Shown here piece by piece: positions 21,029 to 55,858 of a stretch of 64,000 nucleotides of DNA. The notes below the pieces were generated by a model. That model was not told the DNA's origin. It worked only from the letters and a program-made list of their open reading frames with translations, and made no database searches. The position numbers were made by a program, and so were the translations under genes. The stretch spans positions 11,715-75,714 of the forward strand of contig JAGVBT010000069.1 of the NCBI GenBank assembly GCA_020059605.1, given 5' to 3'. Position 1 is the stretch's first letter, and each line of letters starts with the position of its first letter. This stretch comes from Deltaproteobacteria bacterium (GTDB lineage: Bacteria; Desulfobacterota; BSN033; UBA1163).

Positions 21029-21029
21029 C

Positions 21030-26242: not shown

Positions 26243-26244
26243 TA

Positions 26245-27360: not shown

Positions 27361-27417
27361 TGATGTCTTTAATTCTGTTTGTATATTTTTAAATTATTTA
27401 TGATGCATCACAATGCA

Positions 27418-28404: not shown

Positions 28405-30260
28405 GAAGTAGTCCTTTCCTCTATCAATAAAACTTCAAACAACAGGGCATAATCATTTTTAAAGACCAGTTTAATAAGGGATGGAGGTAGGTCTCCTTCC
28501 TTGGGCAGAGTCATTTTTATCCGATTCCGCCTGATTAAAAAATAATCTGCGCCTAAACGTCGTAGTTCTCGGTGAAGACCTTGATCATTAGAAAATCGGC
28601 TGTAAATATTCTCAAAACGGGCTGGACCAAACCAATCCCCCATGAAAAGTCCATCCGCAAAATAAGACATATTTTCGTCGAAGAGGGCATAAAGGGAATA
28701 ATTTCGGCCTTTCGTTTGGTTCAGATATTGATAAGCAGGGAAAGAGGGAAGTTTTTGTGTTAAATAAACCTCCTGCTGCTTATTTGTATAGGGCGGGAAA
28801 CTTTCTTTCCATACCATATAGGTAACATACAACCATCCGGGGCTGAAGAGGATTATTGGAATAGAAAAAGTGACAAATTTCTTCTTTACCCATTTTAATT
28901 TGCCAGAGGTAAAAAGTCTTAAGCAATTCTCTAATGATCCAGTGATGGTAAGACTGAGGAGAGGAATAATGGGCAGAAGGTATCGCAAGACCTGAGCGGT
29001 CCAGAACCAAAAGAGCGTATATAAAAAAATAATGCACCATAATCCTTTAATCTTTGCAGATGACAGACTTAAAAAAAGTAAAGGAAGTGAAAATAAATAT
29101 ATTGGTGAATAGGGAGCTTCCATGAGAAACTTTGATTGGTTAAAAGTGAGATCCCATGGTAAGAGTAAAAGAGATCGGAGGCTTTTTCCGGTCCCGAAGG
29201 TTCGTAATAAATTATCTAATGCTCCCTGAAGGTCTTGGGCGCTCCATAATCCGTATCCGAATATCTGACCAAAGAATGGAAAAACAGGGTTTCCCATGTA
29301 GTGCCAGTTTCTGAAGTACCAGGGGAAAGCGGTTCCAATGGCAATAACCACAAAAAGAATAAATGGGAAGATTCTTCCATCTTTCAAGCTTGTGCAGAAG
29401 ACAACAAGGCTAAGCAAAGCAAAGAAAAAGAGAGCCGAATATTTTGAACCCGCTGCAAAGCCGAGAAACAAGGCCCCTAAGATCAACCATATCTTCTCTT
29501 TTGAATACACATAATTGAAAAGGACATAAATCCCCATCGTTATAAAGAGGGTTAATCCGATATCAATATTGGCACTGGTTCCTAAATAAAGCACTAAGGG
29601 ATTTGAGAGGAAGATAGCTAACGACCAGATCCCGACGGTTTTAGAGAAATGTCTCTTGGCAAAGGCGAAAAGGCCTATACCAAGGGCGACCATCATCAGA
29701 AATTGTATTAATTGGGCGGCAATCCCATCGTATAAGAGAAGGGCTAATGTAAAAAGCATCTCATTGGTTTGGGGAAAAACAGGAAAGCGTAGATAAGGAG
29801 TCAAAATGATTTCATGGGACTGGGAATAAATTTTTGCATAGGTTAGATGATACATCGTTGAATCGAAGGCGGTTGGTGGATAGAGAGGCATTAAAAGAAT
29901 CGGCAAAAGGCAGAGGACGATCAAAAAGGAAAAGAGGATGGATCTCCATTTAATCCCTTTTTGTCGAAAGTAAGCCGATATTGCCTGAAACAGTTCAATC
30001 CAGGCAGATGAACATAACAGGAAGATGATTCCTATCACCACCAGAACCAGCAGGTGATGTAGAACTCCAAGGATCCCTATTAGGAATACGAGGTAGGCAA
30101 GGATTCCAAGCCCAAGGGTCATGCAGAAGCTAAATTGTTCTGCTTTCCCAGAAAAATGAGTTTGTTGGGTTAGTCTTCTACCGATACCATAGGAGAGAAT
30201 CCCTATCCATACGATGAAGGCATAATGGCTGACAAAGAAAAGGATGGCTTTAAATACCAT
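28401..30260 (-). CDS. GT-C-like multi-pass membrane glycosyltransferase
   Basis: 619 aa and at least 12 hydrophobic segments. The first loop has PPTAFDSTMYHLTYAKIY, similar to YDALNYHLTVPRIY in the next gene. A soluble C-terminal domain of about 130 aa follows. Confidence 0.55.
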   Translation of the reverse strand: MVFKAILFFVSHYAFIVWIGILSYGIGRRLTQQTHFSGKAEQFSFCMTLGLGILAYLVFLIGILGVLHHLLVLVVIGIIFLLCSSAWIELFQAISAYFRQKGIKWRSILFSFLIVLCLLPILLMPLYPPTAFDSTMYHLTYAKIYSQSHEIILTPYLRFPVFPQTNEMLFTLALLLYDGIAAQLIQFLMMVALGIGLFAFAKRHFSKTVGIWSLAIFLSNPLVLYLGTSANIDIGLTLFITMGIYVLFNYVYSKEKIWLILGALFLGFAAGSKYSALFFFALLSLVVFCTSLKDGRIFPFILFVVIAIGTAFPWYFRNWHYMGNPVFPFFGQIFGYGLWSAQDLQGALDNLLRTFGTGKSLRSLLLLPWDLTFNQSKFLMEAPYSPIYLFSLPLLFLSLSSAKIKGLWCIIFLYTLFWFWTAQVLRYLLPIIPLLSLTITGSLENCLRLFTSGKLKWVKKKFVTFSIPIILFSPGWLYVTYMVWKESFPPYTNKQQEVYLTQKLPSFPAYQYLNQTKGRNYSLYALFDENMSYFADGLFMGDWFGPARFENIYSRFSNDQGLHRELRRLGADYFLIRRNRIKMTLPKEGDLPPSLIKLVFKNDYALLFEVLLIEERTTS

Positions 30261-30309
30261 AGTGCATTAAAGCTTGAAAAACCTTTGACCACAACTAAAA
30301 AGAGTTTTT

Positions 30310-32904
30310 TTAATCATTCTCCTCAACAAAAGAGAAATCATCAAACCAGACTTCACTATCCTCATGGACACTGGCATAAATAACCGCCAATTGTGCATTT
30401 TCTGGGGCTCTAACAGACATAGAATGGCAGATCCATTTATCTTTCACGGCTGGAACCACTCGGATATCGGGACGGATGATTTTCCCCTCAAAAAGCCAAT
30501 TGATTTGCAATCGGGCAAATTGGCCCTCTTTGTCAGCTTTTATGTAGTTGGTGAGCTTGTAGAGTGTATTTGCTTCGGCGGGTAAAACCTGTGTGAAAAA
30601 ATCTTTTCTGGAAGTCTTAATCGCCCCTTTCCCTGTATGACTCTTCTTTCCGGAAAAATCCACCGTAGGATTTCCAAATGGGTTCCACCTGGCAGGTAAT
30701 GCACCTTGAATTTCTTCAAACCCTGGGTTTTCGAGGAGCTCCATTTTTATCCCTTTTCCCGAGGCTTTTTTTTCCGTTAAAATATGATAAAGGAAAATAT
30801 TGTCAGAGGAAAATTCAAGTTTGGTGTAACTATTAAGAAAAGATGGATGTAAAACGGGTGGCTTATACTTCCATGTTGAAGTTAAAGACTTATCAACCAT
30901 AATATGAGTGAACCCTGTTTTGATTAGAAGGTTAGATAAGCCTCTCTTTGAAGATAGTTCAAGGAGGTCTCTTGTATTCAGTGAGGTACGAAGATTTTCC
31001 AGGTGAGCATGTGAATAAAAAAGATAGTCATTTCCAGCCAAGAGAACTTTAACCTTTTTAGGGTCGTATTGATATCTAACATACTGATAAGTATGGTGAT
31101 ATCCCTTGAGGGTTCTTGAAAGATATTCGTCAGTAGATTCTAATCCAAAAGCAACCTTATAAGGAATTCGTTCAGGAATGTTCCAAAATGTGACTAACTG
31201 GAGAGGGATGGTAAACATGAGGCCGATGATGATAAGCGCCCTATAAAGAATGGCAATAGGTTTCGGCGAATGATCCTTAAAGAAGGCGAGAACATATGAA
31301 GCTAAAAGGGAATAGATTGGAACGATGGGTAGAAAATATCTCAGATATTGACCGATACAAAACCATATTCCCATAAAACTTAAGAAAATAAAAATAAAAA
31401 ATGGAAGGATGCGAGGAGGCTTTGATGTAAAAAACAAAATAGATACCATCGCAATGAGTAGATGAAAACCAACAAAGCCATCCGGAGAACCCTCTATAAA
31501 GGCTTTCGTATGGTAGGTGAGGTTCCAAGGAAGCAAAAGGAAATCCTTTACACCACTCCCCATACCAAAGTCTTTAAGATTCAAAAAGGTATTTACCGGT
31601 GGTAATAATGGGCTTTTGAAGATTGCATTATAAAACGGGAAAACAGGGTTGCTTGTATGAAAATAAGTCACCATGTACCATGGTAAGGTGATAATCAAGA
31701 TCGGGAGCGTAAAAGAGATAAAATTAGCAATATTTTGGGTAAAATTTCTTCTTGAAAGATGACAACTTATTGCTAAAATAGAGAGGCTCATTGGAACCAA
31801 TGCCAAAGCGGCATTTAATTTTGCCGACAAAGCCAAACCTGACATTAGCCCACATATAAAAAGAAAGCCTCTTTTTCCCGTTTTCCACCAAAGGGTCAGG
31901 CCATAAACCGCAGAAAATATATAGAAGGTCGTGGCTAAATCGATATAGGTTGTGGTCGATAGCCAAGCGGCGAGGGGTGAAACATAAAAGAAGGCCGCGG
32001 CAAAGACTCCTATCTCAACGGAAAAGGACCTCTTCCCGAAAGAGAACACGGCCACGGCCACCAGGATGCCAAAACAGAGAGAAAATAACTTTGCCGTGAT
32101 CTGTCCTGAAAGGATCAATCCAAGTCCGTAAAGCATCTCGATACTTTTCGCAAAATAGGATTGAAGAATGTGAGGTAGTTGAACAGCCCCATGATGTTCG
32201 ATATAAATTCGGGGGACCGTCAGGTGATAATTCAAGGCATCATATTGAATCTCCGGGGCAATTGCTCCAACGAAATTGATTCCAATGCTCAATATCATAA
32301 TAGAAAATAATGCAGAGGCAAAAATAGAATTTGACGAATTTCTGACAGATGAGGGTAGATTTTTAATTTTTATTGAAACTTCCTTAGCCAACACCACAAA
32401 ATCTTTTAAAAATAGGATGGAGATTAAAATTAAGGAGGGGAATACCACCTGCTTATACAAAAAACCTGTTAATGAGAGAATAAAAATAAAAAACGAATAA
32501 ACCCCGAAACCTATTCCTATTGAAAAGGTAATATTTTCTAACCAAGAGAGGGGTAATTCTCTAAAACCCGACTTTAAAATTTTACCGCCCAAAACCCATG
32601 CCAGGAAGAATATCCAGATAAAGACCAGGACGTCAATGATGGTTTTGCTTAAAAGGGAGAGGATAAGGGAAAAAATGATGGTAATCATAGATAGAAAGAT
32701 TGGGAGAATCAGAGAATTATTTTTTAAAATAATAGATAGAAATGAGAAGATCACCACCATTCCCATGATGATGAAGGAAAAAAGGAAATCATAGGGCGAT
32801 TTGTTAAATGGATTGAGAAGCCATTTGAGAGAGGTATAGATGTATGTAGAAACAATAAAGATTAAAAATAAAAGAAAGAAATGTTTTGCAAAATTTTTCT
32901 TCAC
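30310..32904 (-). CDS. GT-C-like membrane glycosyltransferase with C-terminal carbohydrate-binding-module-like domain
   Basis: 864 aa and about 14 hydrophobic segments, with motif EIQYDALNYHLTVPRIY. The last ~144 aa (LENPGFEEIQGALPARWNPFGN...TLYKLTNYIKADKEG...VWFDDFSFV) look like a CBM4_9/galactose-binding-like beta-sandwich. Confidence 0.55.
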   Translation of the reverse strand: MKKNFAKHFFLLFLIFIVSTYIYTSLKWLLNPFNKSPYDFLFSFIIMGMVVIFSFLSIILKNNSLILPIFLSMITIIFSLILSLLSKTIIDVLVFIWIFFLAWVLGGKILKSGFRELPLSWLENITFSIGIGFGVYSFFIFILSLTGFLYKQVVFPSLILISILFLKDFVVLAKEVSIKIKNLPSSVRNSSNSIFASALFSIMILSIGINFVGAIAPEIQYDALNYHLTVPRIYIEHHGAVQLPHILQSYFAKSIEMLYGLGLILSGQITAKLFSLCFGILVAVAVFSFGKRSFSVEIGVFAAAFFYVSPLAAWLSTTTYIDLATTFYIFSAVYGLTLWWKTGKRGFLFICGLMSGLALSAKLNAALALVPMSLSILAISCHLSRRNFTQNIANFISFTLPILIITLPWYMVTYFHTSNPVFPFYNAIFKSPLLPPVNTFLNLKDFGMGSGVKDFLLLPWNLTYHTKAFIEGSPDGFVGFHLLIAMVSILFFTSKPPRILPFFIFIFLSFMGIWFCIGQYLRYFLPIVPIYSLLASYVLAFFKDHSPKPIAILYRALIIIGLMFTIPLQLVTFWNIPERIPYKVAFGLESTDEYLSRTLKGYHHTYQYVRYQYDPKKVKVLLAGNDYLFYSHAHLENLRTSLNTRDLLELSSKRGLSNLLIKTGFTHIMVDKSLTSTWKYKPPVLHPSFLNSYTKLEFSSDNIFLYHILTEKKASGKGIKMELLENPGFEEIQGALPARWNPFGNPTVDFSGKKSHTGKGAIKTSRKDFFTQVLPAEANTLYKLTNYIKADKEGQFARLQINWLFEGKIIRPDIRVVPAVKDKWICHSMSVRAPENAQLAVIYASVHEDSEVWFDDFSFVEEND

Positions 32905-33150
32905 CGAAGGATTCCCTAACGAAAAGAATCTATTTTTACTTCAGAGAAGTTATGGAACAAATGTTGCAATTCTTCCTTCCGATCATATCTTTTATGGTCA
33001 TTGATATCCTTTTCAGAAATCATGGTCGCCCTGGAAGAAAACGTAGTTATAGTCTCTCGACAAATCATCCACGGTTTTATCTATCTCATAGCATTAGGAA
33101 ATGCTTCCCTAACGGTTCACAAATCTGTAAGGTCGCTCGTCATGGAGACT

Positions 33151-34062
33151 TCATCTATTTATCTTTAAAAAATTATACAATTCGTCAAACCTCCGATTGA
33201 CTGAATCCAAAATAATTCCTGTGATGAATGAGATGATAGATAATATCATGGTTCCGGAGGCAAAAATAGCAAGAGGGACATGCCGAATATATCTTGTCTT
33301 GATGAATTCCTCAATCACCACAGAACCCGAAAGGAGAGAGATAAAGAACAAGATGAAGGAGGTCGTTGAGAAGAAAAGAAAGGGTCTATAGTCCTTAAAA
33401 ATCATGAAGATCGTTTTTAAAACCAATACACCATCCCTAAAGGTGTTAAGCTTTGAATAACTCCCTTCTGGCCGTTCCCCATATGCGATATCGAATTCTT
33501 TTATAAGATATCCGAACTTTAAAGCCTTAATTGTCATTTCTGTTTCAACTTCAAATCCAGAGGAGGTGATATTGATGTTTTTAACAAACTCCCTGCTCAT
33601 GACTCTAAAACCAGACATGATATCCCTCAAGTGGGCATGAAATAATTTGTTGATAAGAAATCGTACCAATTTATTGCCAAAGGTGTGCAAGGGTCTGAAG
33701 GATTTAGATAAATAACTTTCCAGCCTGTTTCCCACGACGAGATCCGCCTCTTCATTCTTTATCATGGAAATCATCTGGTCAACTTTTGTTAAATCATAAG
33801 TGTCATCACCATCCACGATGATGCAGATGTCCGCATCGACTTTATTAAACATGGATTGTACCACATACCCTTTCCCCTGACGCTTTTCCTTAAAAACAAC
33901 AGCCCCTGCGGATTTGGCCACTTGGGTGGTCCCATCCGTTGAATTATTGTCAAATACATATATTTTTGCCTCAGGGACTTGTTTTCTCATATCCGTTATT
34001 ACTTTAGTTATTGTTAGTTCCTCATTGTAACATGGAATCATAGCAGCAATTTTAATATCCAT
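33151..34062 (-). CDS. GT2 polyprenyl-phosphate sugar synthase (GtrB/DPM1-like) with C-terminal TM helices
   Basis: IAAMIPCYNEELTITKVI...IYVFDNNSTDGT...IIVDGDDTYD, plus two C-terminal TM segments. Start set at ATG 34062, preceded by GGAGG. The listed 34083 start is TTG. Confidence 0.85.
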   Translation of the reverse strand: MDIKIAAMIPCYNEELTITKVITDMRKQVPEAKIYVFDNNSTDGTTQVAKSAGAVVFKEKRQGKGYVVQSMFNKVDADICIIVDGDDTYDLTKVDQMISMIKNEEADLVVGNRLESYLSKSFRPLHTFGNKLVRFLINKLFHAHLRDIMSGFRVMSREFVKNINITSSGFEVETEMTIKALKFGYLIKEFDIAYGERPEGSYSKLNTFRDGVLVLKTIFMIFKDYRPFLFFSTTSFILFFISLLSGSVVIEEFIKTRYIRHVPLAIFASGTMILSIISFITGIILDSVNRRFDELYNFLKINR

Positions 34063-34237
34063 TAAGTAAGACCTCCGTAACAAAACCGTTCAGCAAACCG
34101 ACTGGAATGGACTCAATAAACCTCAATAATTCGCTGCTTAGCAGGTTTGGCATAGGACCTTACTAATATTATCGAATTAAAATAATATTTATTACGACTT
34201 ACTATTTCTTATTCACAGAATGTTTAAAGTAACCTCT

Positions 34238-35836
34238 TTAATCTTCTCTCCCACACCTATATACATAATAAACAGGTTTATCGAATTTATCATAAATTGT
34301 CATTTCTTTACAAGTAATATTATTGTGAATTAGAAATGCATTAAAAACGTTTTTTCTACCAAAGTTCCCGCCTTGGTTGTCCTCAGCGTAAAAAACGTAT
34401 ACATTATCCTTATAATTGTGCATTTTATCCTTTAATTGATTAATAAAGAAATTTGAATTACCTGTATACCCGAATATCTCCTCAGTTGTGATTTTACCTT
34501 TAGAAACCAAAAACACTAATCTTGATATTCCCCAGCTACCCGCATAAATTTTGTGTATCTTATCATTTTCCAGGGTTCTGACCAATTTAAAAATAGAGGA
34601 TGACCACATCGGATTTTCATTTTGCGTTCTTAACGTATTGAAATAATTAATATTTATATTAGTATAAATCATTAGAAGCAGTAGGGTAATAGGAATATAT
34701 ATGTACTTTGGTAAAAAAAGTAAAAAATAAGAAAGAATCACAATTAACAAAGGTAGGACAATCAAATTGTGGAATGGACTTAAAGAACTTGAGGGAATTG
34801 ATTGTATAAATACAAAAATAGACATGGCATAAAAATATTCTATTTCTCTAATAGGTTTATTTTTAAATCGGCCCCACACCAACAATGCGAGCAACATCAA
34901 AAAACAGAAAGAAAAGAAGTAAAAAGGGAAAGAACTGCAAAACGTTCCTTCCACCTCACCGAAAGGATTTCCACAGTTAAAAAAAGCTTTAATTTGATTA
35001 GAGCGTGCATAAGTATTAGACATGAATGCGTTTAAAGGACTTGATTCTTTCAGAATGGATTCATTATTAAAAAAAATAAAAACATTGTAATGGCCGAGAA
35101 CATTAAAAAGAATGAAAAAAGATGATCCAAGCAGAAAGAAAAATATTCCCCCCATCAGTTTTTTAATGGATTTATAAAATATATAAAAAAGGTCCCGAAG
35201 CAGACTCTTATTCAGGCAGATGAGGTAGAGCGGAAATGCAATGATGAGCATAACCATCTCTAATCTTGTACTTAAGCCAAGGCCTGTGGCCAAACAGCCG
35301 AAATAAAAATGTCTCCAGTTTCTCTGAAGGTACCACCTGTGAAAAGAATAAAACATAAATCCAAGCAGAGTTAATCGTAGGATAAAATAAGGATCCGTCC
35401 TGCTGTAGAAAATATGGGAAGGCATAAAGGTCAGAAGGAGAACGCTTAAAAAGGCAACTTTCTTGCTTAAAAAAAGCTTCAAAAAAGCATAAAAAAATAT
35501 AATTGAAAGGCATGCATACAGGACACTAAGGCCCCTATAGGCGAAAGAATACTCCGTTAAATAAAGAAGTAACACTTGTGGATAAATAGGAAATCCTCCG
35601 CTTTGAGGTGAAATCCCTAATGGAAGTTTATACCCAAGGATGTCAATGTGCGGATAAGGCAGATGCGATACTTGAAGTTTTGTTTGAAGGGCCGCATAGG
35701 GTACATATATTTCATCAGCATAAGGACCTGGAGTGTTAAGGGAGTATATTCGAATCAGGAAAAAAGTTAACAATAATAATATAAAAAGTGGCTCTCTTTT
35801 TAAAAGTTCTTTTGCCTTTGAAGGAAAAGCGGGCAT
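34238..35836 (-). CDS. GT-C / PMT_2-like membrane glycosyltransferase
   Basis: 532 aa and about 11 hydrophobic segments. First-loop PGPYADEIYVPYAA. Soluble C-terminal tail. Confidence 0.55.
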   Translation of the reverse strand: MPAFPSKAKELLKREPLFILLLLTFFLIRIYSLNTPGPYADEIYVPYAALQTKLQVSHLPYPHIDILGYKLPLGISPQSGGFPIYPQVLLLYLTEYSFAYRGLSVLYACLSIIFFYAFLKLFLSKKVAFLSVLLLTFMPSHIFYSRTDPYFILRLTLLGFMFYSFHRWYLQRNWRHFYFGCLATGLGLSTRLEMVMLIIAFPLYLICLNKSLLRDLFYIFYKSIKKLMGGIFFFLLGSSFFILFNVLGHYNVFIFFNNESILKESSPLNAFMSNTYARSNQIKAFFNCGNPFGEVEGTFCSSFPFYFFSFCFLMLLALLVWGRFKNKPIREIEYFYAMSIFVFIQSIPSSSLSPFHNLIVLPLLIVILSYFLLFLPKYIYIPITLLLLMIYTNININYFNTLRTQNENPMWSSSIFKLVRTLENDKIHKIYAGSWGISRLVFLVSKGKITTEEIFGYTGNSNFFINQLKDKMHNYKDNVYVFYAEDNQGGNFGRKNVFNAFLIHNNITCKEMTIYDKFDKPVYYVYRCGRED

Positions 35837-35886
35837 TGGTTTCTAATGATTAAGAACCATAAAAGGGATTTTAAAAAAAACAACCT

Positions 35887-36252
35887 CTACGGTTCTACTG
35901 TAAAAACAAGACTGTTCGATTGGTTTCCGTTTTTAGTATCTAATAAATATAAATGAAATTGTCCAGGCTTCGAATAGAGCTCTTTGGGGACCAATGCGGT
36001 CAGACCATTCGGGCTTCCAAAGGTTGTATGTAATTGCGTTTCCCCCCATACAATTACGGTTGTTATTGTGGCATTCTCAGCTTTGGTCCATATAGCGGAA
36101 ACTCCTCCGGGTTGAACATTGAACCCCTGTCCGGCTTTCGTTTCGGCAGGACCGATTTCCTTTAACAAAGGTGGGGTCGCCTTTTTACATCCGGTCATCA
36201 TTACAACCATGATGAGCGCGAAAGCCCACAAAAGCATTTTATTCAGTTTCAT
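35887..36252 (-). CDS. Small lipoprotein with a single IPT/TIG (Ig-like) domain
   Basis: MKLNKMLLWAFALIMVVMMTGC has a lipobox. The mature part, GPAETKAGQGFNVQPGG...LTALVPKELYSKPGQFHLYLLD...SLVFTV, resembles an IPT/TIG fold. Start set at ATG 36252, after GGAGGG. Confidence 0.55.
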   Translation of the reverse strand: MKLNKMLLWAFALIMVVMMTGCKKATPPLLKEIGPAETKAGQGFNVQPGGVSAIWTKAENATITTVIVWGETQLHTTFGSPNGLTALVPKELYSKPGQFHLYLLDTKNGNQSNSLVFTVEP

Positions 36253-36268: not shown

Positions 36269-39200
36269 TCAGGTTTTGATTTCCCGATACCGATGGGGTT
36301 GCCAGGGGAATCCCCATTTTTCTTCAAAACGTCTTTTATTCTCATTAAAAATCTTCCTGTATTCTCCGGTCTCCTTCAGTTTATTGAAGGAGACCTCCCC
36401 AAAGTGATGGATAAAGACGTCCTCCGCGCACACCACACGGTACCTCTTAAGGCGGATGCGATGGGCAAAATCGTCATCCTCAAACATTCCGATCTGAAAT
36501 CGCTCGTCCAATAATCCGACTTCGTCGATTAATTTCCGCCTCATTGCAACACAATACATCGCCAGTACTTGGATGTCAAATCTCTTGGGAAGAAAGTGTT
36601 TTCTAATAAAATATTCTGAAAACCCTTCGATCTCCTTCAGCTCTTTATAGGGAACATCGATCTTTGATTCATTTCCTGAGAAATTGGTTACCGGTCCAAC
36701 TAAACCGATGGAATCGTCCTGTAAATGCCTAAGCAGTTTTGTTATCCACCCTCTTGTCAAAATGGTATCGTTGTTTAAAAAGATGATGTATTCCCCCGAA
36801 GACGCTAAGATTCCCTGATTATTCGCCTTTGGAAATCCTTCGTTTGTCGAATTGAATATGATCTGTACTTGAGGATGGCGAGAGGCCAGCTCATGCAGGT
36901 ACTCTTGTGTCCCGTCCTCTGAGTGGTTATCGACCAGGATGATCTCGTAATTTGGGTACTGAGACTTCAAAAAAATACTTTCAATACACATTTTAGTGTA
37001 ATACAGGTTATTAAAGGTCACAATGATAATGCTGACTTTTGGATAAATATTTCTAATCTCTGAAGTTAACGTAATATATCTAGCCTCCCAGGTATTCTTT
37101 TTGGCGAGCTCGATCCTTTCTGTTATTAGATTCTTATTATTTTCATGCAAGGCACTCTCTATATTTTTAAGAAAATCATTTTTGTCTTTAGCCAGATAAA
37201 GATATTTGGCATAAGGCAATAATTCGGGGATCTCGACAGAGACTACCTTCTTCCCCGAACTCATAAATTCGTAGAATTTAACAGGATTGGTGGCTTTGGT
37301 TAGTTTATTCAGCTTAAAGGGGATAATGCAAACATCAAACCAGTAAAGATATTTTGGCAGTTGGTCATAAGGTTTCTCTCCAAGAAAGTGAACATTGGAG
37401 ATTTTCTCTAATCTCGCAATATCAGATCCAAAGGTATGACCGATAAAAACAAAATTCCAGTCTTTTTTGCTGATAGCCAGATACTCGACAAGTTCATTGT
37501 CAAACCAGTCCGAGATGGCACCGTAATAGCCTATGATGGGCTTTTTCATTTCTTTTAAAAGGTCATTTGGAGGAAGATGGCTGAAGTGGTTAAAATCCGA
37601 GGCGTTGGGCAGAAAAAGGCATCGTTCGTTATGGTGTCTCATTTTTTCATAAAGAGATTGGGCAGTGGTGATGAGAAGGTCGCAACCCTTCGCGAGCAGC
37701 GTTTCCCGAGAGAGCATCGCTTCATCGTTTGTCGAAAACCCGCTATGTTCATCTATACAGTCATAAATAATTTTCCAACCCAATTCCTCTTTGATTCTCT
37801 GGGCGAGGGGTTGCCAAAAGGGAAGCTGAACGATTGTGATTGCTTCGACAATTCCTTTCTCTTCCCTCAGAGAATTAAGAGAAGCGGCCATCTTTTCCAG
37901 GCTTACCTCATCGATAGGGTCTTGATAGATGCTCAGCCGGGGATTTGCCTCAATGGCCACATCAAAAATACCTTCCTTAATCTCCCGGCATTGGAATTCC
38001 CCTCCCTGATTATCCAAGAATTTTGGATTGATATAAAAAACCCTTGCCCCATTTTGTGCAAATTGGGAGAGGATCTGCTGGGGTCTCTGGTATCTGAAGA
38101 ACCAGTCGATGATCGGCAGGCAGATGACATCGTATTGCCGGGCTATTTTTGAGTTATGATCTTGACTGGCAGAAAGAGAGGGAACCTCTTTATTTCCGGA
38201 CCCTCCTTGCTCTATTTGACTTATGGCGCTTCTATTTTCTTCTCCCTCCTTCTCTTTATTACTGTGAGAGGGTCCTATTTTGATAAACGGAAATACGGTG
38301 TTCATTAGCTTCACGGAGAAATTCCCTAATCTCCAGGTTCTCGTGGAAAGCATTGCGTTGAGCCTGGTGTCGAGGTTGACAATTTGGTTTTTTAGGTAGA
38401 ATACGGAAAGATCCCTTTTGGCCACCTCATCCGTATAATGCTGCTCCTGCTCCTTGTGTTTGGACAGAAGCGAGTGGATTTCGTCGTTTCTATCAGCGAT
38501 CTCTTTTGTATAATGCTGTTCCTGCTCCTTATACTGCTCAATAAGATCTTGAATCTTATCCTCTATCTTAAGGAGCTCCAGGTCCTTTTGTTGTATCTGT
38601 TTTTGTAGATTTTCCAAAATCCCCACTTGTTCAGAGAGTTTCTGAATCTGCTCGTCTCTCTGCTCTAACTCCCTATGGAGATGATCAATGGTGTGGTCCT
38701 TGAGCTTTTGAAAAATGGAATTGGATATATCAATCAGATGGGAACCTTGCAGGAACGTCTCGATCAATTGGTTTGTATCCGAAGCGATGGCGATAAAGTA
38801 TTTGGAAGGTTTGTTCTCTCTTGAAGTGAATTCGAACCCACTCTTTGACTTTCTGAGAACAGATTCTTCAAAGTAAACCTCTTTGCGGCTAAAGAGAGGT
38901 GATATATTCGAGCCAGAGAATACGTTTTGCCCGAAGAACCAGACAAATTCAAAATATCCCTTTAGGAAGCCTCTCAAATCATTAAAGTAAAACTCTTTGA
39001 TATGGAAAGGATTCTTGAAGTTAATCTCATCGGAGTAAACCTTTTTGTTCGGAGTGGATAAGACGAGGATACCATCGTTCTTCAATAGCCTCTTAATTTC
39101 TTTAAATAAGGCCCCATGGTTTTCAATATGCTCTATGGCCTCGAAACAAACGATGACGTCAAATATTCTCTCTCCCTCGATTGGAACCTCGAGGATAGAT

Positions 39201-39457
39201 CCCTGAATGAATTCGATATTTTCTTTGATATATTTGCTGCTGGCATGGTTAATGATATCTGGGGCTATGTCTACCCCTACCACATGGGAGGCATTCTCCG
39301 ATAAAAGCAAGCTCCCATAACCCTCGCCACAGGCCAAATCCAAAACTTTCTTCCCCGTCACAAACCGCTTACAGAAGGCATACCGATGCAAATGTTCGTA
39401 ATTCATCATGGGGTCATCATCCCAGGGCAAGAACCGCTCTCCCGTATCTTTCAGCAT
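36269..39457 (-). CDS. Multidomain protein: SAM methyltransferase - coiled coil - GT-B (TuaH-like) - GT2
   Basis: aa 1-190: [15 protein letters not shown]...VGVDI...FEAIEHIEN...[13 protein letters not shown]. aa ~248-372: heptad-rich, with the duplicated KEQEQHYT block. aa ~440-790: GT-B blocks. aa ~806-1062: [21 protein letters not shown]...[11 protein letters not shown]...FLNNDT...FEDDDF. Confidence 0.8.
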
Positions 39458-40953
39458 AGAACTTCCCTCATTTCTTCCATCGGGTCAGCCGTTAAAGAGA
39501 ATATTTTGCTGAGGGCGATGGTTAGTTCAGCCAGAGGCCATGATTGGCCTGATAGGTCAATGGGATTTTTTTCAAAGGGGTCCTTATTTAAGTCGTACAC
39601 TTCGAACTTTTTGGCATGGGTAATGTATTCTCTTAAAAATTCATGAAATACCTCCCCCTTCGATAACTCTCCTTCATACAGAAGCCCAGCCAAGACAGGA
39701 AACCTTCCGGGTTCTTCGAAGACATTCAACAAATTCCTCCGGAGGGTTTTCACAAAATCCAGAGGATTCGAATCAAAGACAGTTCCATCCAAACAATTTT
39801 CTGGGTTTCCATAGAGGAGGAATTTCTTGTTGCAAACTCTTATGCCTCTTTGCCACAAAAGATATTCGTCACTGACCGCCTCAAACAGACTCTTTCCCCG
39901 CCAGGTTTCACAATAGGCAAGAAACAAGGGGTTGGTTTCATTCTGACGGAGAAGAGAAGGCGCTAAACTATTCCCATCCGTTTTGAAATCCTTTTCCAAT
40001 CTATCCTGGAGAATTAATTCGATGAGCGTTGGGAATAGGTCCACAGTTGTGATCTGGTGATCTCTTAGGCTGTGTCCCCATTCAGGATGAAAAACCATAA
40101 GGGGGACCCGGATGACATCGTCGAACAATTCCCCCGCATGGGCAAAAAAAGAAGGGTCCTCGGAAATCACCCTTCCTTCCCCATGGTCTGAGAAAACAAA
40201 AATTAAGGAATCTTTTAATAAACCCAAGCAGTCCAGACTGTTGATGAACCGTCTAAATCTTCCTTGATCAAATTTGGTTACTCCCTTGACATAGAGGGGG
40301 AGGAGAAAATCGACACTGGGATGGACTTTTGTCCACATGTTGTTCCATGAATCATAAGGATTATTTATAGAAGGGGGACCCACTAATTTTAACTTTTTAT
40401 ACAAACCCTCCATCATTTCATAATAGTCATCATTACAACCCTTCAATGCCCCATATTCTGAAAAGAGAAATGGAGCGTGAACATCAAAGAAATGGACAAA
40501 GAGGAAGATGTGTTCCTCCTTGATCTGGTCCAAAAAGGATAAAAGGCCGTGGTCATCCCTCATAAAGAGGTGAGTAAACCCCCGATCTAAGTTCATCGGT
40601 TTAAAAAGGTGTTCGGTATCCGTAGCCAGAATGGTGTGATACCCGTGCGCTCGAAATACTTCTGCTAATGTGATGGCCTCTCTTTTGAGTTGACTATTAA
40701 AAAAAGTCCTTACGCCATGTTTCGGCGGGTAGAGGCCTGTCAGGATACTCGCATGGGAAGCAGTGGTGTAAGTATTGGTGCTTATCGCCTGCGTAAAACA
40801 GGTGCTCTTTTCTGCCAGATGATCCAGCGTTGGAGTTTCAAGATACTTCAGGACATCATGTTTTATTAGTTCTCTTTTGTCCGGCTGGTAGCCAATACAA
40901 TCGTATCGTAGATTGTCTATGGAGATCAAGATGATGTGTTTAACGTTCTTCAT
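39451..40953 (-). CDS. Cytoplasmic alkaline-phosphatase-superfamily enzyme (sulfatase/NPP-like, Thr in the nucleophile position)
   Basis: No signal peptide. [42 protein letters not shown] and VFSDHGEG are metal/nucleophile blocks. The CxPxR formylglycine motif is absent. Confidence 0.75.
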
Positions 40954-43109
40954 GCAAGGTACCCCAGGTCCTTTAATCGCTTCATCAGTTCCTCTTTTTC
41001 TTCATCCTCACGGTCGAGCTTGGAAGATTTTGGTCTCGTGTCATTGATACCTGGTTCCCCTCGCATGCCTTGAAATTGGTTACCATCTAAGGAAAGGTAT
41101 GGAATCTGATAAGTTCTTATGTAATCCCATAGGTCTTGTTCTGTAAAATGTGACAGAGGACAAATTCTTATCAGACCATTCCACTCATCGCAAGATCCCT
41201 CTCCTTCCCTAACCTCCTGGGCATCCAGCTTGCCCGCTACCATACATGCCTTGATCTTATATCTTTGAATGACCTTTTTTAAGGTTTTTTCATCCTTGAG
41301 GATGATCAGGTAAAGACCCCAATTTTGGGCCAAGGTATCACGAAATTCATAAACCTCTTTGGCTTCATTCAAGGTATCGAGATGAAACACCCTGAAGGGG
41401 ATTATTTCATGAAAGGTCTTTTTGATAAGATAAAGCAAAGCCGCTGTCTCTTTTTCCCTGGTGAAGAACACGCCGATATTCCATTTTCCGAATCTTTCCA
41501 AGGCATCTTTAATAATTTCGATGCTTTTTTCCGTTTTATCTCGAAGATTGTTGGTTGGCTGTTCTTTTAGTTCCCCCATTGGGGATAGCGCTAAGGGTGA
41601 ATGGTTACTTTCCAATAACTCACCTTTATTCAAATTTATAATTCTACCATAATAATAAGAAAACTCAACAGTGAGCAACGGGTCGGTTGTGGGATCTAAT
41701 GGATACATCTCGTCAGGGTCTTCCTTGAGCTGGAAGATCGAGAACTGTTTTCGGTTTTTGAACCATTCCGATTCCAAAAAAAGATTGAACACTTCCTTTT
41801 TAGAAGAACCATTTTCAAGGCGGTTTAAAAGTTTTTTATAGAGTGGATTTTTTTGGGGATCGAATGGGAAATATAAAAGACCCCTGAAAACAGCCTTCAA
41901 AAAATCTTCGTTCTCTAAATTGAAAACCCTCCCTTCGAGGAAATCTTCAGGCCTACCATAGACTAAATATTTTTTTTCTTCCGTTCTGACGCCCCTTTGC
42001 CACAGGAACCAATTCTCTTCAGAAAGGGGGTTATCCGGATAGGACATCCAAACCTCACTGTAGGCTTCCCGGTCCCCTGCCTCTTCACCCATGATTGTCG
42101 GCAAGAGTGTTTTCCCATCGAGGTAATAAGGGAGGTTGTCCTGCCACTTCTCAATTCCGGCCATCTCTAAAACCGTAGGAAACAAAGAGACCAGTGAAAC
42201 CTGGTCATCGATCGTTTCGGGCTTTAGATCCGGGTGCCTAAGGATCAAGGGGACCCTAATCACACTGTCGTGCAAAGACCCGGCATGCCCAAAATATGGG
42301 GACGAAGGTTCCTGGCTCTTTCCTTCCCCATGGTCGGAGAAGATGACGATCAGGGCATCCTCTGTGAGATGAAGTTCCCCCATTTTTTGAAAAAAGTGGC
42401 GAAATCGACCTTGATCGAATTTGCTTACCCCCTTTACATACAAGGGAAACAGGGTATGCATGTCGAATGCATATTTCTCGCAGAGGAGATTCCAGGCCTC
42501 ATAGTGTTTTCCTTCGGTCTTGATAGATTCGATATCGATATCCTCTCCTGTTTGTTCGTAAAGGTTCCGAAGATGTTCGTAAAAATCGTCATTATACCCC
42601 GGATGGATTTCATAATCTGAGTGGAGAAACGGGCAGTGAACATCCATGAAGTGAACCAACAGGAACATCCTTTTATCCCTGATTTGTTCCAGTAGAGAAA
42701 AGAGGCCATTATCGTTTGCCGTTTTAAAAACATGGTTAAACCCCCGCATTAAACCCGGGGACTTAAATAAGATTCCGTTATCAGAAGATAAGACTGTCTC
42801 AAATCCAAATTCTTTGAGGAGAGTTGGCATCGTGAGAGCCCGATCATCGAGGATAGATGGGCCGTGAAGCCTCACCTTATGCCTCGGGGGATAGAGGCCA
42901 GTTAAAACGCTCGCATGAGAAGCCATGGTATAGGTGCTGGTACTTATCGCCCGTGTAAAACATACACCTTTTTCGGCTATCCTATCCAGGGTAGAAGTGT
43001 TTAAATATTTTAAGCAATCAAATTTTATTAACTCTCGTTTGTCCGGTTGGTAGCCTATACAATCATACCTTAGGTTATCTATGGAGATTAGAATAATGTG
43101 TTTTGGCAC
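40950..43109 (-). CDS. Fusion protein: alkaline-phosphatase-superfamily domain + CysD/PAPS-reductase-like domain
   Basis: GTG start. aa 1-470 are paralogous to 39451-40953 ([30 protein letters not shown]). aa ~525-719: [20 protein letters not shown]...[20 protein letters not shown]...[16 protein letters not shown]...LKDLGYLA. Confidence 0.75.
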   Translation of the reverse strand: [719 protein letters not shown]

Positions 43110-43353: not shown

Positions 43354-45072
43354 ATGGTCGGGGATATTTTCGCTCCGAAACGAATCTGCGGACACGAGTT
43401 CTTCCTCCCTGTTATGGTCTTTTCGCTTTTTGTTCTGATCAAGTATCTAACTCTATTCAGCATTAATTTTGGACCTATCCTTTTTTTCGACGAACTCCTC
43501 TATAAGGAGCTGGCCCTCAAATTAGTTACAGAGCCGTTAAAAAACGGATATCCTTCAACTCATTTCCCGTTTGTCTATCCGTTGTTTCTTTCCCCCGCTT
43601 TTCTCTTCTCAGATTTTTACTCTGTGATGAAGATATTAAATATCTTGTATTCTTCGGCCATCGTATTTCCAGTCTGGATGATTGCCCGCCTTTTCAAACT
43701 CGGTCACACTGAAAGTGTTATAGTCATCGTGCTGGCCAGCCTCCTACCGTATCAGGTTGCACTTTCTCCAATGATCATGAGCGAGCTGTTATTTTTTCCT
43801 CTTTTGTATTTTGCCATTTACTTAACCCTGCAGATGCCAGCCCGGCGTCGTATCGCCTTTGCTTATCTCACAGGAATATTCATCGGCCTCCTGGTTGAAA
43901 CTCGTTATATCGCGATTCCCCTTGTGCCATCGTTTCTTTTTGTCTTTTCGCTGAAATTATTAGAGAAAAGCCACGGGGAAGCCAGGCATGATAAATTCAA
44001 ACAGCTCTTTTCCCTTCTCTTGGGTTTTGCTACGGTTTATCTGCCAAGATTAGGCGTGGGTTTGTTGTTAGGACATAAGATATTTTCCGTCGTCGGTTTC
44101 GCAACTCATAAAGTCATGGTGGAAACCGATCTAAACCGAATCCTGTTGTTTCACACATTTTATGTCTCATACATCATCTTGTCCTTTGCGCCTTACCTTT
44201 TCTGGTTGTTATTCTTTGGATCTAAATATCTTGCTCCTCCATGGACTTCTCCTGAGAAGCGTTTGTTTATTTTGATTATGGCCATCACAGCAACTCTTGT
44301 ATCCGTTGCATCCTGGCATTCGGCTAAAGCTTATTATAACACTCCCGATCTAAAGTATATGATTGGTCGATATGTTTTCTTCTCACTTCCTCTCGTCATT
44401 GTTTTTACCTTTGCAGGCCTGAAAAACTCTTGCGTGGTCAAGAGAAAAGGCACTGCCCTTTCTATCGGATCTTTATGGTTATCTGCTCTTACTTCAACGC
44501 TGCTGATCATGTTCTCGTATAAAATCCTTTTTGAAAACTATTTAATAGACCTCCCGGGTTACTTTGTAATGAGCCATATTTCCCCGGACGGAACAGCGTG
44601 GAGGCTGTTAAAATATCCTTATATGTATACCGTCTTGGGGGTGATTGTGCTTTATGCGCTGTATGTCACTGTAAAATGGCCCCCCAAAGCTTTGCCCTGG
44701 CTTGTATTTATCGTAACGGTATCTCTCTGCTTATGGGGGAACAAAGTTCTCTATAAACAGACGGTAGAATACAAGCGACGGGCGATTCACGCCTACTACC
44801 TGGCAGAAGGAGCAAAGGCATTTTTTAAACGAACAGGTATCGTTCCCGACATCTATTCGATAAAATTTCCCCACAGCTTTATTGAGCACTCTTTCAAGTT
44901 CTGGGAGGCTCCGATCAACAAAGTGATATTTCTTGGGGAAGAAACACAGTTTACATCGCCCGGGGTTTTACTGGATACAAAACAAGCCGCACATTATCCG
45001 CTGGTCCATAGCTACCAAACGGGTGGGAAACAATATTTTATCCAGCACATCATTGAGCGGGAGAACCGGTAA
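43354..45072 (+). CDS. GT-C / PMT_2-like membrane glycosyltransferase
   Basis: 572 aa and about 13 hydrophobic segments. First-loop PILFFDELLYKELALKL. Confidence 0.55.
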   Translation: MVGDIFAPKRICGHEFFLPVMVFSLFVLIKYLTLFSINFGPILFFDELLYKELALKLVTEPLKNGYPSTHFPFVYPLFLSPAFLFSDFYSVMKILNILYSSAIVFPVWMIARLFKLGHTESVIVIVLASLLPYQVALSPMIMSELLFFPLLYFAIYLTLQMPARRRIAFAYLTGIFIGLLVETRYIAIPLVPSFLFVFSLKLLEKSHGEARHDKFKQLFSLLLGFATVYLPRLGVGLLLGHKIFSVVGFATHKVMVETDLNRILLFHTFYVSYIILSFAPYLFWLLFFGSKYLAPPWTSPEKRLFILIMAITATLVSVASWHSAKAYYNTPDLKYMIGRYVFFSLPLVIVFTFAGLKNSCVVKRKGTALSIGSLWLSALTSTLLIMFSYKILFENYLIDLPGYFVMSHISPDGTAWRLLKYPYMYTVLGVIVLYALYVTVKWPPKALPWLVFIVTVSLCLWGNKVLYKQTVEYKRRAIHAYYLAEGAKAFFKRTGIVPDIYSIKFPHSFIEHSFKFWEAPINKVIFLGEETQFTSPGVLLDTKQAAHYPLVHSYQTGGKQYFIQHIIERENR

Positions 45073-45079
45073 GCAAAAT

Positions 45080-46411
45080 ATGAGCTGTGAAAGTATTAGC
45101 AAAGTTATCACCAGCGGTCTTTGCACCGGATGTGGGGTTTGCACGCTGTTTCAAGAGAATTCCAGCATGATTTACACCAGTCACGGTCCGCTTCCAAGCT
45201 TTGACGCCCCCCCGCCTGAAGATGAAGTAATCTTCAAGGCCTGTCCCGGGAAAGGGATTGACTACCCGGAACTATATTTGGCTCACTATGGCAGGCTCCC
45301 TGAGAATTACCTGCTTGGACCTCTCAAAGCCGTCAGAACCGGCTATGCATGTAATCAAGATATACGATACTCGGGAGCTTCAGGCGGCGTGATGACTCAG
45401 GTCCTGATCTATTTGCTCGAGTCAAAAAGAATTGACGGGGCGATACTTGCCAAACAAGGTGTACCAACGCCACTTGAAGCTCGACCGGTCATTGCCACGA
45501 CAAGAGAGGAGATCATCAGTTGTGCTCAATCGGTTTATATTCCCATATCGATGTTGGATAAATTGAGAGATCTCGAGCCAGGCAAACGTTATGCCTTAAC
45601 TTGTCTTCCCGACCAAGCCTCATCCCTAAGATTATTACAGCAACTCAACTTTCCGGCGGCAAAACAAATCAAGTATCTCTTAGGTCCTTACACCGGAACT
45701 GCCCTTGAGCCGGAAGCGATACGCTGTTTCCTTCGCTCATTCAAAGTGAGTGACCATGACCCTGTAAGATCTCTGAAATGGAGAGCCGGCGAGTGGCCTG
45801 GATGCCTGGAAATAGCGACCCGCTCGGGCAGAACCATTCGGTCACCTAAGGTTTACTACAACTTTTTAATCCCTTTTTTCATCACTGCCGCCTCCCTCAT
45901 GTCGATGGATTTTGCGAATGAATTTTGCGATCTTTCGGTAGGGGATGCCTGGTCGCCAAAGTTTGAGAGGGAAGGGGGGGGACACTCTGTTATCATAACC
46001 CGGTCGGAGGAAATGGAAGAGATTGTTTCAGACATGGAACAAATGGGCCTTCTTGCCTTAGAAAAAATAGACCCTCTTAACGCAAGCGAGATGCACGGTC
46101 ACATGATTGACTTCAAGAAACGCGGAGGTTATATACGAAACACGCTCAGGAAAGCTTTAGGAAAGGAAGCTCCGGATTTTGGCATGAGACCCAGTCTGCT
46201 GCCCTTATCGAGAATTGCCGTCGAGCTGGTTATCTCTTGCATCTTTTGGGTTGGAAAAAGCAGGATGATTCGCGCTCTTGTTCCCTTTATACCCCAGACC
46301 CTTTTAGGCCCTGGGTTTAATTGTCTTCGCTTAACCTGGAAGACGTTAAGCAAACCAACCAAGCGAAAAGGGCTGTCAAGATTAGTGATGCTGAGAACGA
46401 ACGAATCATGA
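45080..46411 (+). CDS. Coenzyme F420 hydrogenase/dehydrogenase beta-subunit-like (FrhB/FdhB family) FeS flavoprotein
   Basis: MSCESISKVITSGLCTGCGVCTLF..., GASGGVMTQVLIYLLESKRIDGAIL, LTCLPDQASSLRLL. Start set at ATG 45080, 8 nt after the upstream TAA. The listed ORF starts at 44933. Confidence 0.7.
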   Translation: MSCESISKVITSGLCTGCGVCTLFQENSSMIYTSHGPLPSFDAPPPEDEVIFKACPGKGIDYPELYLAHYGRLPENYLLGPLKAVRTGYACNQDIRYSGASGGVMTQVLIYLLESKRIDGAILAKQGVPTPLEARPVIATTREEIISCAQSVYIPISMLDKLRDLEPGKRYALTCLPDQASSLRLLQQLNFPAAKQIKYLLGPYTGTALEPEAIRCFLRSFKVSDHDPVRSLKWRAGEWPGCLEIATRSGRTIRSPKVYYNFLIPFFITAASLMSMDFANEFCDLSVGDAWSPKFEREGGGHSVIITRSEEMEEIVSDMEQMGLLALEKIDPLNASEMHGHMIDFKKRGGYIRNTLRKALGKEAPDFGMRPSLLPLSRIAVELVISCIFWVGKSRMIRALVPFIPQTLLGPGFNCLRLTWKTLSKPTKRKGLSRLVMLRTNES

Positions 46412-49024: not shown

Positions 49025-49395
49025 GAATGAGTGGTTTGGTATCCTTTCTTGGCGCAGGCATCCCTGGGTTCCTAATCGCCCTACCGCTCAACATGTTCCT
49101 GGTTGAGACGATTCGTCTTGGAATAGAAATCTCTTATCTATTCGTTTTGTTCATTCAGGTCTCAATTAATTTTTGTATGGTCAGAACCTTCCTTTTCGAT
49201 ATAAAAGACCGTTCCAACATTCTGCCACAATATATCCAATTCTTGCTGGGAATGTTCCTATTTCGTTTTTTTGATTGGTTAATATATATCTTTTTGGTAA
49301 AGGCGACAAACGTGCATTACCTCCTGGTCCAGGCTGGAAACATCATTCTTTTCTCTTTTTTAAAGTATAAATTCACGAAAAAAGTAATGGAATAA
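49021..49395 (+). CDS. GtrA-family small membrane protein
   Basis: 124 aa and 4 TM segments. Overlaps the stop of the GtrB-like gene, the classic gtrA/gtrB-type pairing. Confidence 0.7.
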   Translation: MRMSGLVSFLGAGIPGFLIALPLNMFLVETIRLGIEISYLFVLFIQVSINFCMVRTFLFDIKDRSNILPQYIQFLLGMFLFRFFDWLIYIFLVKATNVHYLLVQAGNIILFSFLKYKFTKKVME

Positions 49396-51604: not shown

Positions 51605-51621
51605 AATGAAAGGATGGGATA

Positions 51622-51648
51622 GGGGGGGGATGTTCCTCCCCCCCCCCC
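51622..51648 (+). other. G8-N8-C11 homopolymer hairpin between the metalloprotease stop and the next start codon
   Basis: GGGGGGGGatgttcctCCCCCCCCCCC ends 4 nt before ATG 51653. No U-tract follows. Confidence 0.5.
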
Positions 51649-51652
51649 GTAC

Positions 51653-55102: not shown

Positions 55103-55858
55103 TCATCCATTTGGCGCCACGCTTTTTCTGTATTCTCCTATCACGGCCCCCGGTTTACCTTCGGCCGCCACTTCCCCGTGGTCAAGCCAGATCGCCCGGT
55201 CACAAATTTCTTCGATGGCCTGGAGGTTGTGGGATACCAAGACGGTGGTGACGCCGCCTTTGATCAGACGCAACATGGCGTCCTTTGATTTTTTCTGAAA
55301 CCCCTCATCCCCCACGGAAAGAACCTCGTCGATGATGAGAATTCTTGGATCGGTATGAATTGCCACCGAGAAAGCCAACCGGACATACATGCCGGTTGAG
55401 TAGGTCCTGACCGGGACATCCACAAATTCCCCCATTTCTGAGAAAGCGACAATCGACGATATTTTTTGAAGGATATCTTCTCTGGTCAGACCCAGCAGCA
55501 CCCCGTTTAAAATCACATTTTCCCTCCCGGTAAGGTCGGGATGAAAACCCCCGCCCAGCTCTAAAAGCGGGGTGACCCGGTCCATGATGTTAGCCCTGCC
55601 CTGTGACGGCAAAATGGTTCCCAGCATCAGGGACAGGAGCGTGCTTTTCCCTGCCCCATTTTTACCAATAATGCCGACGGATTCTCCCCTGTCTATCCTG
55701 AGCGTCACATCCCTGAGTGCATGAAAATGGCCGTCCCCTTTTGCTTGCCTCTTGATCCATTTCGGGAAATTGACAAAAAACTCCTTAAAGCCGGGCCTAT
55801 CCCTTTGGGAAGGGTATTTCTTCCAGACATGATCTATCTCGATCACCCTGTCGCTCAT
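55103..55858 (-). CDS. wzt: Polysaccharide/teichoic-acid-type ABC exporter ATP-binding protein (Wzt/TagH/KpsT class, NBD only)
   Basis: GIIGKNGAGKSTLLSLM (Walker A), YSTGMYVRLAFSVA (signature variant typical of this class), ILIIDEVLSVGDEGF (Walker B). Only 251 aa, so there is no C-terminal carbohydrate-binding domain. Confidence 0.9.
   Translation of the reverse strand: MSDRVIEIDHVWKKYPSQRDRPGFKEFFVNFPKWIKRQAKGDGHFHALRDVTLRIDRGESVGIIGKNGAGKSTLLSLMLGTILPSQGRANIMDRVTPLLELGGGFHPDLTGRENVILNGVLLGLTREDILQKISSIVAFSEMGEFVDVPVRTYSTGMYVRLAFSVAIHTDPRILIIDEVLSVGDEGFQKKSKDAMLRLIKGGVTTVLVSHNLQAIEEICDRAIWLDHGEVAAEGKPGAVIGEYRKSVAPNG

Follow-up and report, generated by a model that had tools for sequence, protein, structure and literature searches.

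A coiled-coil ruler that sets the length of a polysaccharide has so far been established only in a few Enterobacteriaceae, and the terminator strategy has been called widespread, citing the 2019 census of Mann, Kimber and Whitfield (PMC11231755). In Klebsiella pneumoniae O7, polymerising and capping by ORF6 were shown biochemically (Kelly et al. 2024, J Biol Chem; PMC11231755), and WbbB of K. pneumoniae O12, Raoultella terrigena and Aeromonas salmonicida also carries terminator, ruler and polymerase in one protein (PMC11231755). The coiled coil of WbdD, the terminator of E. coli O8/O9a and K. pneumoniae O5/O3, is about 200 Å long, and altering its length alters the modal chain length (PMC5082667). 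For WsaE, which acts on the S-layer glycan of Geobacillus stearothermophilus NRS 2004/3a, a 2-O-methyl cap has been proposed to stop elongation (PMC2943079). Here we describe a 1062-residue protein of related layout, encoded in 64,000 nucleotides (nt) of a Deltaproteobacteria bacterium (GenBank assembly GCA_020059605.1, contig JAGVBT010000069.1, positions 11,715 to 75,714 of the forward strand; this whole stretch is called the window below), in which a methyltransferase, a long helical stalk, a GT-B glycosyltransferase and a GT2 glycosyltransferase follow one another. We put the probability that it is a cytoplasmic, membrane-peripheral enzyme uniting terminator, coiled-coil ruler and polymerase in the Wzm/Wzt-dependent synthesis of a surface glycan at about 0.6. 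Capping, ruler function, oligomeric state, the identity of the polymer and its final acceptor are all points that we infer from the sequence and from the relatives compared. The layout is already known and experimentally characterised in O7 ORF6, WbbB and WsaE, and the protein is a further example of it, not a new principle. The variations worth noting are a GT-B/GT2 body with a plain methyltransferase head, an exporter without a carbohydrate-binding module, and sulfatase-fold partners.

The likeness to ORF6, WbbB and WsaE is one of described domain layout and gene order, not of sequence alignment. ORF6 shares an N-terminal methyltransferase-containing terminator, a central coiled coil, two C-terminal glycosyltransferase (GT) modules and the linkage to wzm/wzt (PMC11231755), but its head has an additional kinase and an Ig-like module and makes a methyl-phosphate cap, and its GT modules are GT2 and GT2 rather than a GT4-like GT-B followed by a GT2. 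WbbB is similar in joining terminator, ruler and polymerase, and A. salmonicida WbbB has a GT1-type domain (aa 500-825) ahead of a GT2 domain (aa 850-1050; PMC4483657), the same order and nearly the same positions as in the target protein (443-803 and 806-1048). The WbbB head, however, is a β-3-deoxy-D-manno-octulosonate (Kdo) glycosyltransferase of family GT99, and its Wzt has a cap-binding module that the Wzt of the window is without. WbdD likewise places a methyltransferase (with a kinase in O9a) at the far end of a coiled coil, whose length of ~200 Å (PMC5082667) is near the ~186 Å predicted here; unlike the target, it has a coiled coil that ends in a membrane-binding region and recruits a separate polymerase, WbdA, whereas the GT-B and GT2 domains of the target lie in the same chain and no kinase is present. 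In sequence the two share no more than generic class I methyltransferase motifs (E ~4e-4). WsaE combines an N-terminal O-methyltransferase with two glycosyltransferase domains in one protein, and its genes run wzm, wzt, wsaE with overlapping codons (PMC2943079), an order seen similarly, together with rml genes, in the Neomoorella and Methanomicrobiales relatives described below. It differs in having two rhamnosyltransferases and genes for deoxythymidine diphosphate (dTDP)-rhamnose, while the window has no rml genes; no spacer of WsaE is known to act as a ruler. An earlier note on this DNA, made from the letters and translations alone, had cast the protein as a hypothetical methyltransferase-terminated analogue of the WbbB layout. 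Exporter linkage, stalk variation and head modularity support that assignment; its hypothetical status has not stood, the layout having already been described and tested experimentally in ORF6 (2024) and WsaE (2008-2010). Both of these characterised proteins of the same layout act on polymers (PMC2943079; PMC11231755).

The open reading frame begins with ATG, at a start that shares 7 nt with the stop of the upstream gene (Table 1). Pfam matches to Methyltransf_11 (aa 39-133, E 4e-20), Glyco_trans_1_4/Glycos_transf_1 (aa 634-774) and Glycos_transf_2 (aa 809-980, E 9e-31), an NCBIfam match and an AlphaFold2 monomer model (alignment of 21 homologs, mean predicted local distance difference test score, pLDDT, 77.9) agree that the single chain holds the four parts recognised by the earlier note. 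The model orders them as methyltransferase (21-242), unbroken helix (245-370), a further helix (373-387), disorder (388-442), GT-B (443-803) and GT-A (808-1048). The methyltransferase, previously delimited to aa 1-190, is indeed there, but its fold, modelled confidently at pLDDT ~90, runs to about aa 242. Its S-adenosylmethionine (SAM) motifs, [11 protein letters not shown] at aa 38-48, D63 and [12 protein letters not shown], are intact and kept in the consensus of the 21 homologs. No kinase domain was matched in the protein by the Pfam search. The GT-B domain resembles the retaining GT4 enzymes MshA, BshA and PglH, and there are invariant GT-B residues across the 21 homologs. A TuaH-like character had been proposed for it, and the likeness holds (NF047676, aa 497-796, 100.6 bits), but with an equivalog cut-off of 550 bits we reject a TuaH or teichuronic acid assignment and regard it as a related GT-B domain. 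The GT2 start expected at nt 37042 corresponds to aa 806 and fits the domain found. Foldseek returned generic GT4 and GT-A matches for the two GT modules, and a sequence search of the PDB gave generic methyltransferase and GT2 matches only, among chains that include no O7 ORF6, WbbB polymerase region or WsaE. The short helix after the stalk is moderately amphipathic (hydrophobic moment ≤0.53) and begins inside S-T-x-T-W-R-L-G (aa 371-378), a conserved motif at the end of the stalk in homologs; this helix may lie close to the membrane.

Table 1. Positions of the protein, its domains and the associated genes in the window.
Feature	Position (nt)	Strand	Basis
Target open reading frame, 1062 aa, methyltransferase / coiled coil / GT-B / GT2	36269..39457	-	family searches and AlphaFold2
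Class I SAM-dependent methyltransferase fold, aa 21-242 (Pfam core aa 30-143), proposed capping head	38732..39397	-	Pfam, model
Single uninterrupted α-helix, aa 245-370, 126 residues (18 heptads), proposed coiled-coil ruler	38348..38725	-	model, periodicity
Duplication copy 1, protein block aa 306-327, [22 protein letters not shown]	38496..38530	-	repeat search
Duplication copy 2, protein block aa 331-349, [19 protein letters not shown]	38421..38455	-	repeat search
Short helix, aa 373-387, candidate membrane-proximal element	38297..38341	-	model, hydrophobic moment
Disordered low-complexity linker, aa 388-442, pLDDT <50	38132..38296	-	model
GT-B glycosyltransferase, aa 443-803, pLDDT >90	37049..38131	-	Pfam, NCBIfam, model
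GT2 (GT-A fold) glycosyltransferase, aa 806-1048	36314..37042	-	Pfam, PDB search, model
Sulfatase-fold protein, 500 aa, Thr at nucleophile position; stop shares 7 nt with target start	39451..40953	-	family search
Sulfatase-fold protein with CysD/PAPS-reductase-like C-terminal domain, 719 aa, first operon gene	40950..43109	-	family search
Small lipoprotein-like gene, probable start MKLNKM, lipobox MMTGC, ~90-aa β-rich domain	35887..36249	-	directly downstream of target
Wzt-like ATPase, 251 aa, nucleotide-binding domain only	55103..55858	-	family match
Wzm-like ABC-2 permease, 263 aa	55855..56646	-	family match

The stalk has the features of a long coiled coil, in agreement with the earlier proposal, whose helical region (nt 38342-38716, or aa 248-372) fits the modelled helix. 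It has no Pro and a single Gly, would measure ~18.6 nm (~186 Å) at 1.48 Å per residue, and shows a hydrophobic periodicity peaking at 3.55 residues, with a power reached in none of 500 shuffles. A home-made heptad score was at least 1.40 only at aa 250-333 and 339-376 of the protein; the score is specific within the target but fragments the stalks of homologs, and stalk lengths were compared through spans between boundary motifs instead. The near-duplicate block described earlier is present in both protein and DNA: KEQEQHYT occurs at aa 310 and again at aa 335, an offset of 25 aa, and the underlying copies, 75 nt apart, are 83% identical (29/35 nt). Codon shuffles gave at most 26 matching nt, and 29 was reached in 0 of 500. 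Tandem Repeats Finder called nothing in 38200-38800, and the duplication consists of two diverged copies only.

A comparison of coiled-coil length among homologs, suggested by the earlier note, showed that the stalk varies, through internal duplications, among close relatives. Measured between the motifs SN[SA]IF and [AST]SxTW[RK][LI]G, the span is 126 aa in the target (18 heptads), 161 aa in the homolog of a Nitrospira sp. metagenome-assembled genome (MAG; locus L001; 23 heptads) and 172 aa (161 + 11) in P0002, so that the three closest proteins differ by 35 and 11 aa. The L001 stalk holds a near-perfect 60-aa duplication, and the target stalk looks like this duplication minus 35 aa; an EQE-x-x-Y block occurs in three copies in P0002. 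The duplication periods are 28 aa in P0006, 35 in P0017, 42 in P0011, 55 in P0021, 60 in L001 and 25 in the target, and the duplications in the different homologs are independent. Across the 11 homologs with the same head and GT-B type, methyltransferase and GT-B are separated by 206 to 350 aa, with the head itself at a steady 223-227 aa, and the spacer is thus the length-variable part of an otherwise fixed protein. Diversifying pressure on a ruler would be expected to leave such a pattern. Caution is needed, as coiled-coil sequence duplicates readily regardless of function. In a second group of homologs (P0011-P0019) the spans are 78-113 aa, and because their differences are not all multiples of 7, length change that preserves phase is a tendency of the three closest proteins only.

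The heads vary as well. Proteins with the same GT-B-GT2 body, at 38-60% identity, bear Methyltransf_11 (P0002, P0008, P0009 and P0014), Methyltransf_24 (P0018), GT2 (P0010) or GT4 (P0005) heads at the N-terminus. In P0006, from a JGI contig (3300010938; locus L083), the body is 57% identical to that of the target, the stalk contains a perfect 28-aa (4-heptad) duplication, and the head is a near-full-length match to Sulfotransfer_3, at 26.1 bits against a cut-off of 27. A gene for adenylylsulfate (APS) kinase lies immediately upstream, and we regard P0006 as a candidate terminator that caps with sulfate. That different heads occur on a single polymerase body agrees with the modular terminators described for Klebsiella (PMC11231755).

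Both exporter genes of the window, wzm and wzt, have polysaccharide exporters as their best family matches, and of the eight homolog loci examined, five (the two closest among them) have wzm/wzt adjoining the homolog gene or within 3 kb of it. The closest full-length homolog (P0002, locus L081, 61% identical) is preceded, in consecutive order, by wzm, wzt and a sulfatase-fold/PAPS_reduct gene, and in L001 (63% identical) 2.9 kb separate the operon from wzm/wzt. A Methanomicrobiales MAG (JASEIH010000032, L082) has rml genes, wzm, wzt and then the homolog with overlapping codons; Neomoorella thermoacetica (L085) has rmlACDB, wzm, wzt, a GT gene and a gene for a methyltransferase-GT-GT protein; and in L087 (P0009, 40% identical, same GT-B-GT2 module) wzm and a Wzt bearing Wzt_C precede the homolog. 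Archaeal records are found among these loci: in L082 and in Archaeoglobus fulgidus (AE000782, L086) methyltransferase-coiled-coil-GT proteins occur with rml genes, in one case directly after wzm/wzt. Capped glycans exported by an ATP-binding cassette (ABC) transporter may exist in methanogens, if the binning of the MAG is right.

The arrangement in the window is best understood by comparison with L001. In L001, wzm/wzt and the operon are separated by two genes (2232-4651) whose counterparts in the window, at 49691-52129 (+), share 63% and 71% identity with them, and because the intervening genes have these counterparts, the window retains the L001 block with insertions. The window genes, a conserved part of the locus, encode two secreted proteins, one of ~630 aa in which a weak motif resembles that of zinc metalloproteases, the other small. 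Relative to L001, ~6.3 kb with GT-C, FrhB-like, GT2 and GtrA genes has been inserted at 43354-49395, the wzm-wzt pair is inverted, and a toxin-antitoxin island (52376-54649; a DUF5615/DUF433 pair, a HepT-like gene, and BrnT with a CopG-type antitoxin) falls between wzt and the rest of the locus, where it coincides with the break in synteny. A further DUF5615 gene is found at 22492-22857.

Taken together, these features suggest a mechanism in which the GT4-like GT-B and the GT2 domain would alternate at the membrane's inner face in extending a polyprenol-linked glycan, whose repeat probably contains two linkages. The 126-residue helix would associate with its equivalent in one or two further molecules of the protein, giving a parallel coiled coil of ~19 nm and keeping the N-terminal SAM-dependent methyltransferase distant from the polymerase. 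Only chains that reach the head would then be O-methylated at the non-reducing end, which would stop growth and set the modal length, before Wzm/Wzt exports the finished chain. Export is probably not gated by the cap, because Wzt is without a cap-reading module, and the exported chain is probably decorated in the periplasm by the neighbouring GT-C/GtrB-like systems.

Several observations, in the protein and in its genomic setting, weigh against this mechanism. By sequence the methyltransferase is a generic Methyltransf_11 domain, and in the PDB search the WbdD methyltransferase ranked behind ~50 unrelated methyltransferases at only E ~4e-4. The stalk helix has a moderate pLDDT of 40-76 in the monomer model, a value regarded as usual for a helix that needs partners; the heptad score drops across aa 312-340, which is the duplicated block, and the 25-aa offset of the duplication is not a whole number of heptads. 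The window Wzt matches only ABC_tran and lacks the Wzt_C carbohydrate-binding module, whereas a cap-reading module of this kind is found on Wzt in all terminated O-polysaccharide examples (PMC11231755). A stand-alone cap-binding module was also sought, and nothing in the window resembles the Wzt_C of L087, a weak negative since such modules diverge fast. The Wzt proteins of L001, L081, L082 and L085 (246-261 aa) are likewise without the module. Therefore, either capping occurs without proofreading at export or the methyltransferase does not cap; the target matches the capped class in its layout but is not a prototypical member of the systems with cap-reading exporters. If it does not cap, the methyltransferase could act on internal sugars of every repeat, with a coiled coil that only oligomerises or scaffolds the enzyme and with chain length set through the module-less exporter, as in K. 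pneumoniae O2a. The module-less Klebsiella O1/O2 exporters do export chains with or without the terminal pyruvate, and length there follows transporter stoichiometry (PMC11231755); extra stand-alone methyltransferases in related loci would also suit a decorating role. We nevertheless consider this unlikely. A decorating enzyme has no obvious need of a separation of ~19 nm on a stiff, Pro-free and nearly Gly-free helix, the spacer alone keeps changing length by duplication between fixed flanking domains, the head is swapped for chemically unrelated enzymes, and the same-body relative in L087 does neighbour a Wzt with Wzt_C.

The genomic setting invites a different doubt, namely that the enzyme stands outside the ABC-exporter pathway in this organism, working with a Wzx-type flippase and GT-C enzymes or making a short glycan for protein or lipid glycosylation, while wzm/wzt serve something else. 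The exporter genes are 12 kb from the operon, beyond the inserted GT-C cluster and the toxin-antitoxin island, and inverted relative to L001; a Wzx-like flippase gene is also present in the window, with a phosphoglycosyl transferase gene, at 19.6-22.4 kb; and three of the eight homolog loci (L083, L084 and L086, the last that of A. fulgidus) have no ABC exporter within the DNA available. On the other hand, wzm/wzt are adjacent or near in five independent relatives, among them the two closest, the 63-71% identical counterparts of the intervening L001 genes indicate the same block with insertions, the best family match of Wzt is a polysaccharide exporter ATPase, and the Wzx gene lies in a cluster that differs in composition and has an initiating transferase of its own. 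This second alternative thus seems quite improbable, and a terminator, ruler and polymerase coupled to Wzm/Wzt remains the reading that we prefer.

The locus extends the current picture without changing it. Among the target and its relatives, the layout recurs in uncultured Nitrospirota-like bacteria, Firmicutes and MAGs that have been assigned to methanogenic archaea. Stalks of 126, 161 and 172 aa in proteins that are 61-63% identical, along with the swapped heads, form a natural series that could be used to test the ruler model beyond its prototypes without arbitrary insertions. A putative terminator that stands beside an exporter devoid of a cap-reading module also makes the locus relevant to the question of whether capping can be separated from proofreading at export.

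Upstream of the target gene, the two sulfatase-fold genes overlap one another and the target gene. In the 719-aa protein, whose C-terminal domain resembles 3'-phosphoadenylylsulfate (PAPS) reductase, alignment to a solved sulfatase places Thr-Met-Ala-Ser-His (TMASH) where the formylglycine motif Cys-x-Pro-x-Arg would be expected, and a corresponding Thr-Thr-Ala-Ser-His (TTASH) was read by eye in the 500-aa protein. The smaller protein has a counterpart in L001 (61% identical). The gene for the 719-aa protein has a counterpart immediately upstream of the homolog in L081; in L001 its counterpart is two genes upstream, ahead of a second sulfatase-fold gene. P0074 and P0112 carry the sulfatase fold in fusion, N-terminal to their methyltransferase head, and L081 also encodes CysQ, APS kinase and a sulfotransferase. 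With the homolog loci as queries, no rml genes and no genes for APS kinase, CysQ or a sulfotransferase were found in the window. The pair may take part in capping or modification chemistry, and it is a tentative idea, to which we give a low probability, that the chain or its end carries a sulfo- or phospho-type group besides the methyl group. The P0074 and P0112 fusions, the conserved overlapping gene pair, the PAPS-supply genes and sulfotransferase of L081 and the sulfotransferase-like head of P0006 also lead to a bolder proposal, in which capping would proceed without a cap-reading exporter module and the cap, instead of a plain O-methyl group, would be built jointly by the methyltransferase head and the two co-transcribed Thr-type sulfatase-fold enzymes. 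This would parallel the kinase and methyltransferase of WbdD by means of a different fold, possibly with sulfur or nucleotide-derived chemistry. The proposal includes a natural tuning of the ruler through repeated duplication, in steps of 7 and 11 residues (as among the three closest relatives) that would preserve the phase of the coiled coil, and as a whole it strikes us as doubtful.

Directly downstream of the target, the small lipoprotein-like gene has no Pfam family, and its NCBIfam match to a 'choice-of-anchor Z repeat' is marginal (29.5 bits, cut-off 30). Of 80 loci, 12 conserve a gene of this kind immediately after the GT-B-GT2 homolog. Six GT-C membrane glycosyltransferases of the PMT_2 type are spread over 3955-10768, 28401-35836 and 43354-49395, and a possible seventh, at 46321-48069, has no Pfam match. 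These genes adjoin GtrB-like GT2 genes, one GtrA gene and one gene for an LPG_synthase_TM protein, an arrangement that points to several three-component systems decorating glycans in the periplasm. The product of a GT2 gene at 33151-34083 is 71% identical to the GT2 encoded downstream of the homolog in L081. Scans of the 64,000-nt window for tRNA genes and Rfam families were empty. A second and compositionally distinct glycan cluster at 10806-22353 encodes a B12-binding radical SAM protein, two more radical SAM enzymes (one of them SPASM), an AMP-binding enzyme, a polysaccharide pyruvyl transferase and two GT4 enzymes, and also contains the initiating phosphoglycosyl transferase (19604-21028) and the Wzx-like flippase (21052-22353). 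The G+C content is 0.33-0.40 over 26000-36000, where the GT-C, GT2 and LPG_synthase_TM genes downstream of the target are located, compared with 0.42-0.53 elsewhere, which suggests that this segment is mosaic or recently acquired.

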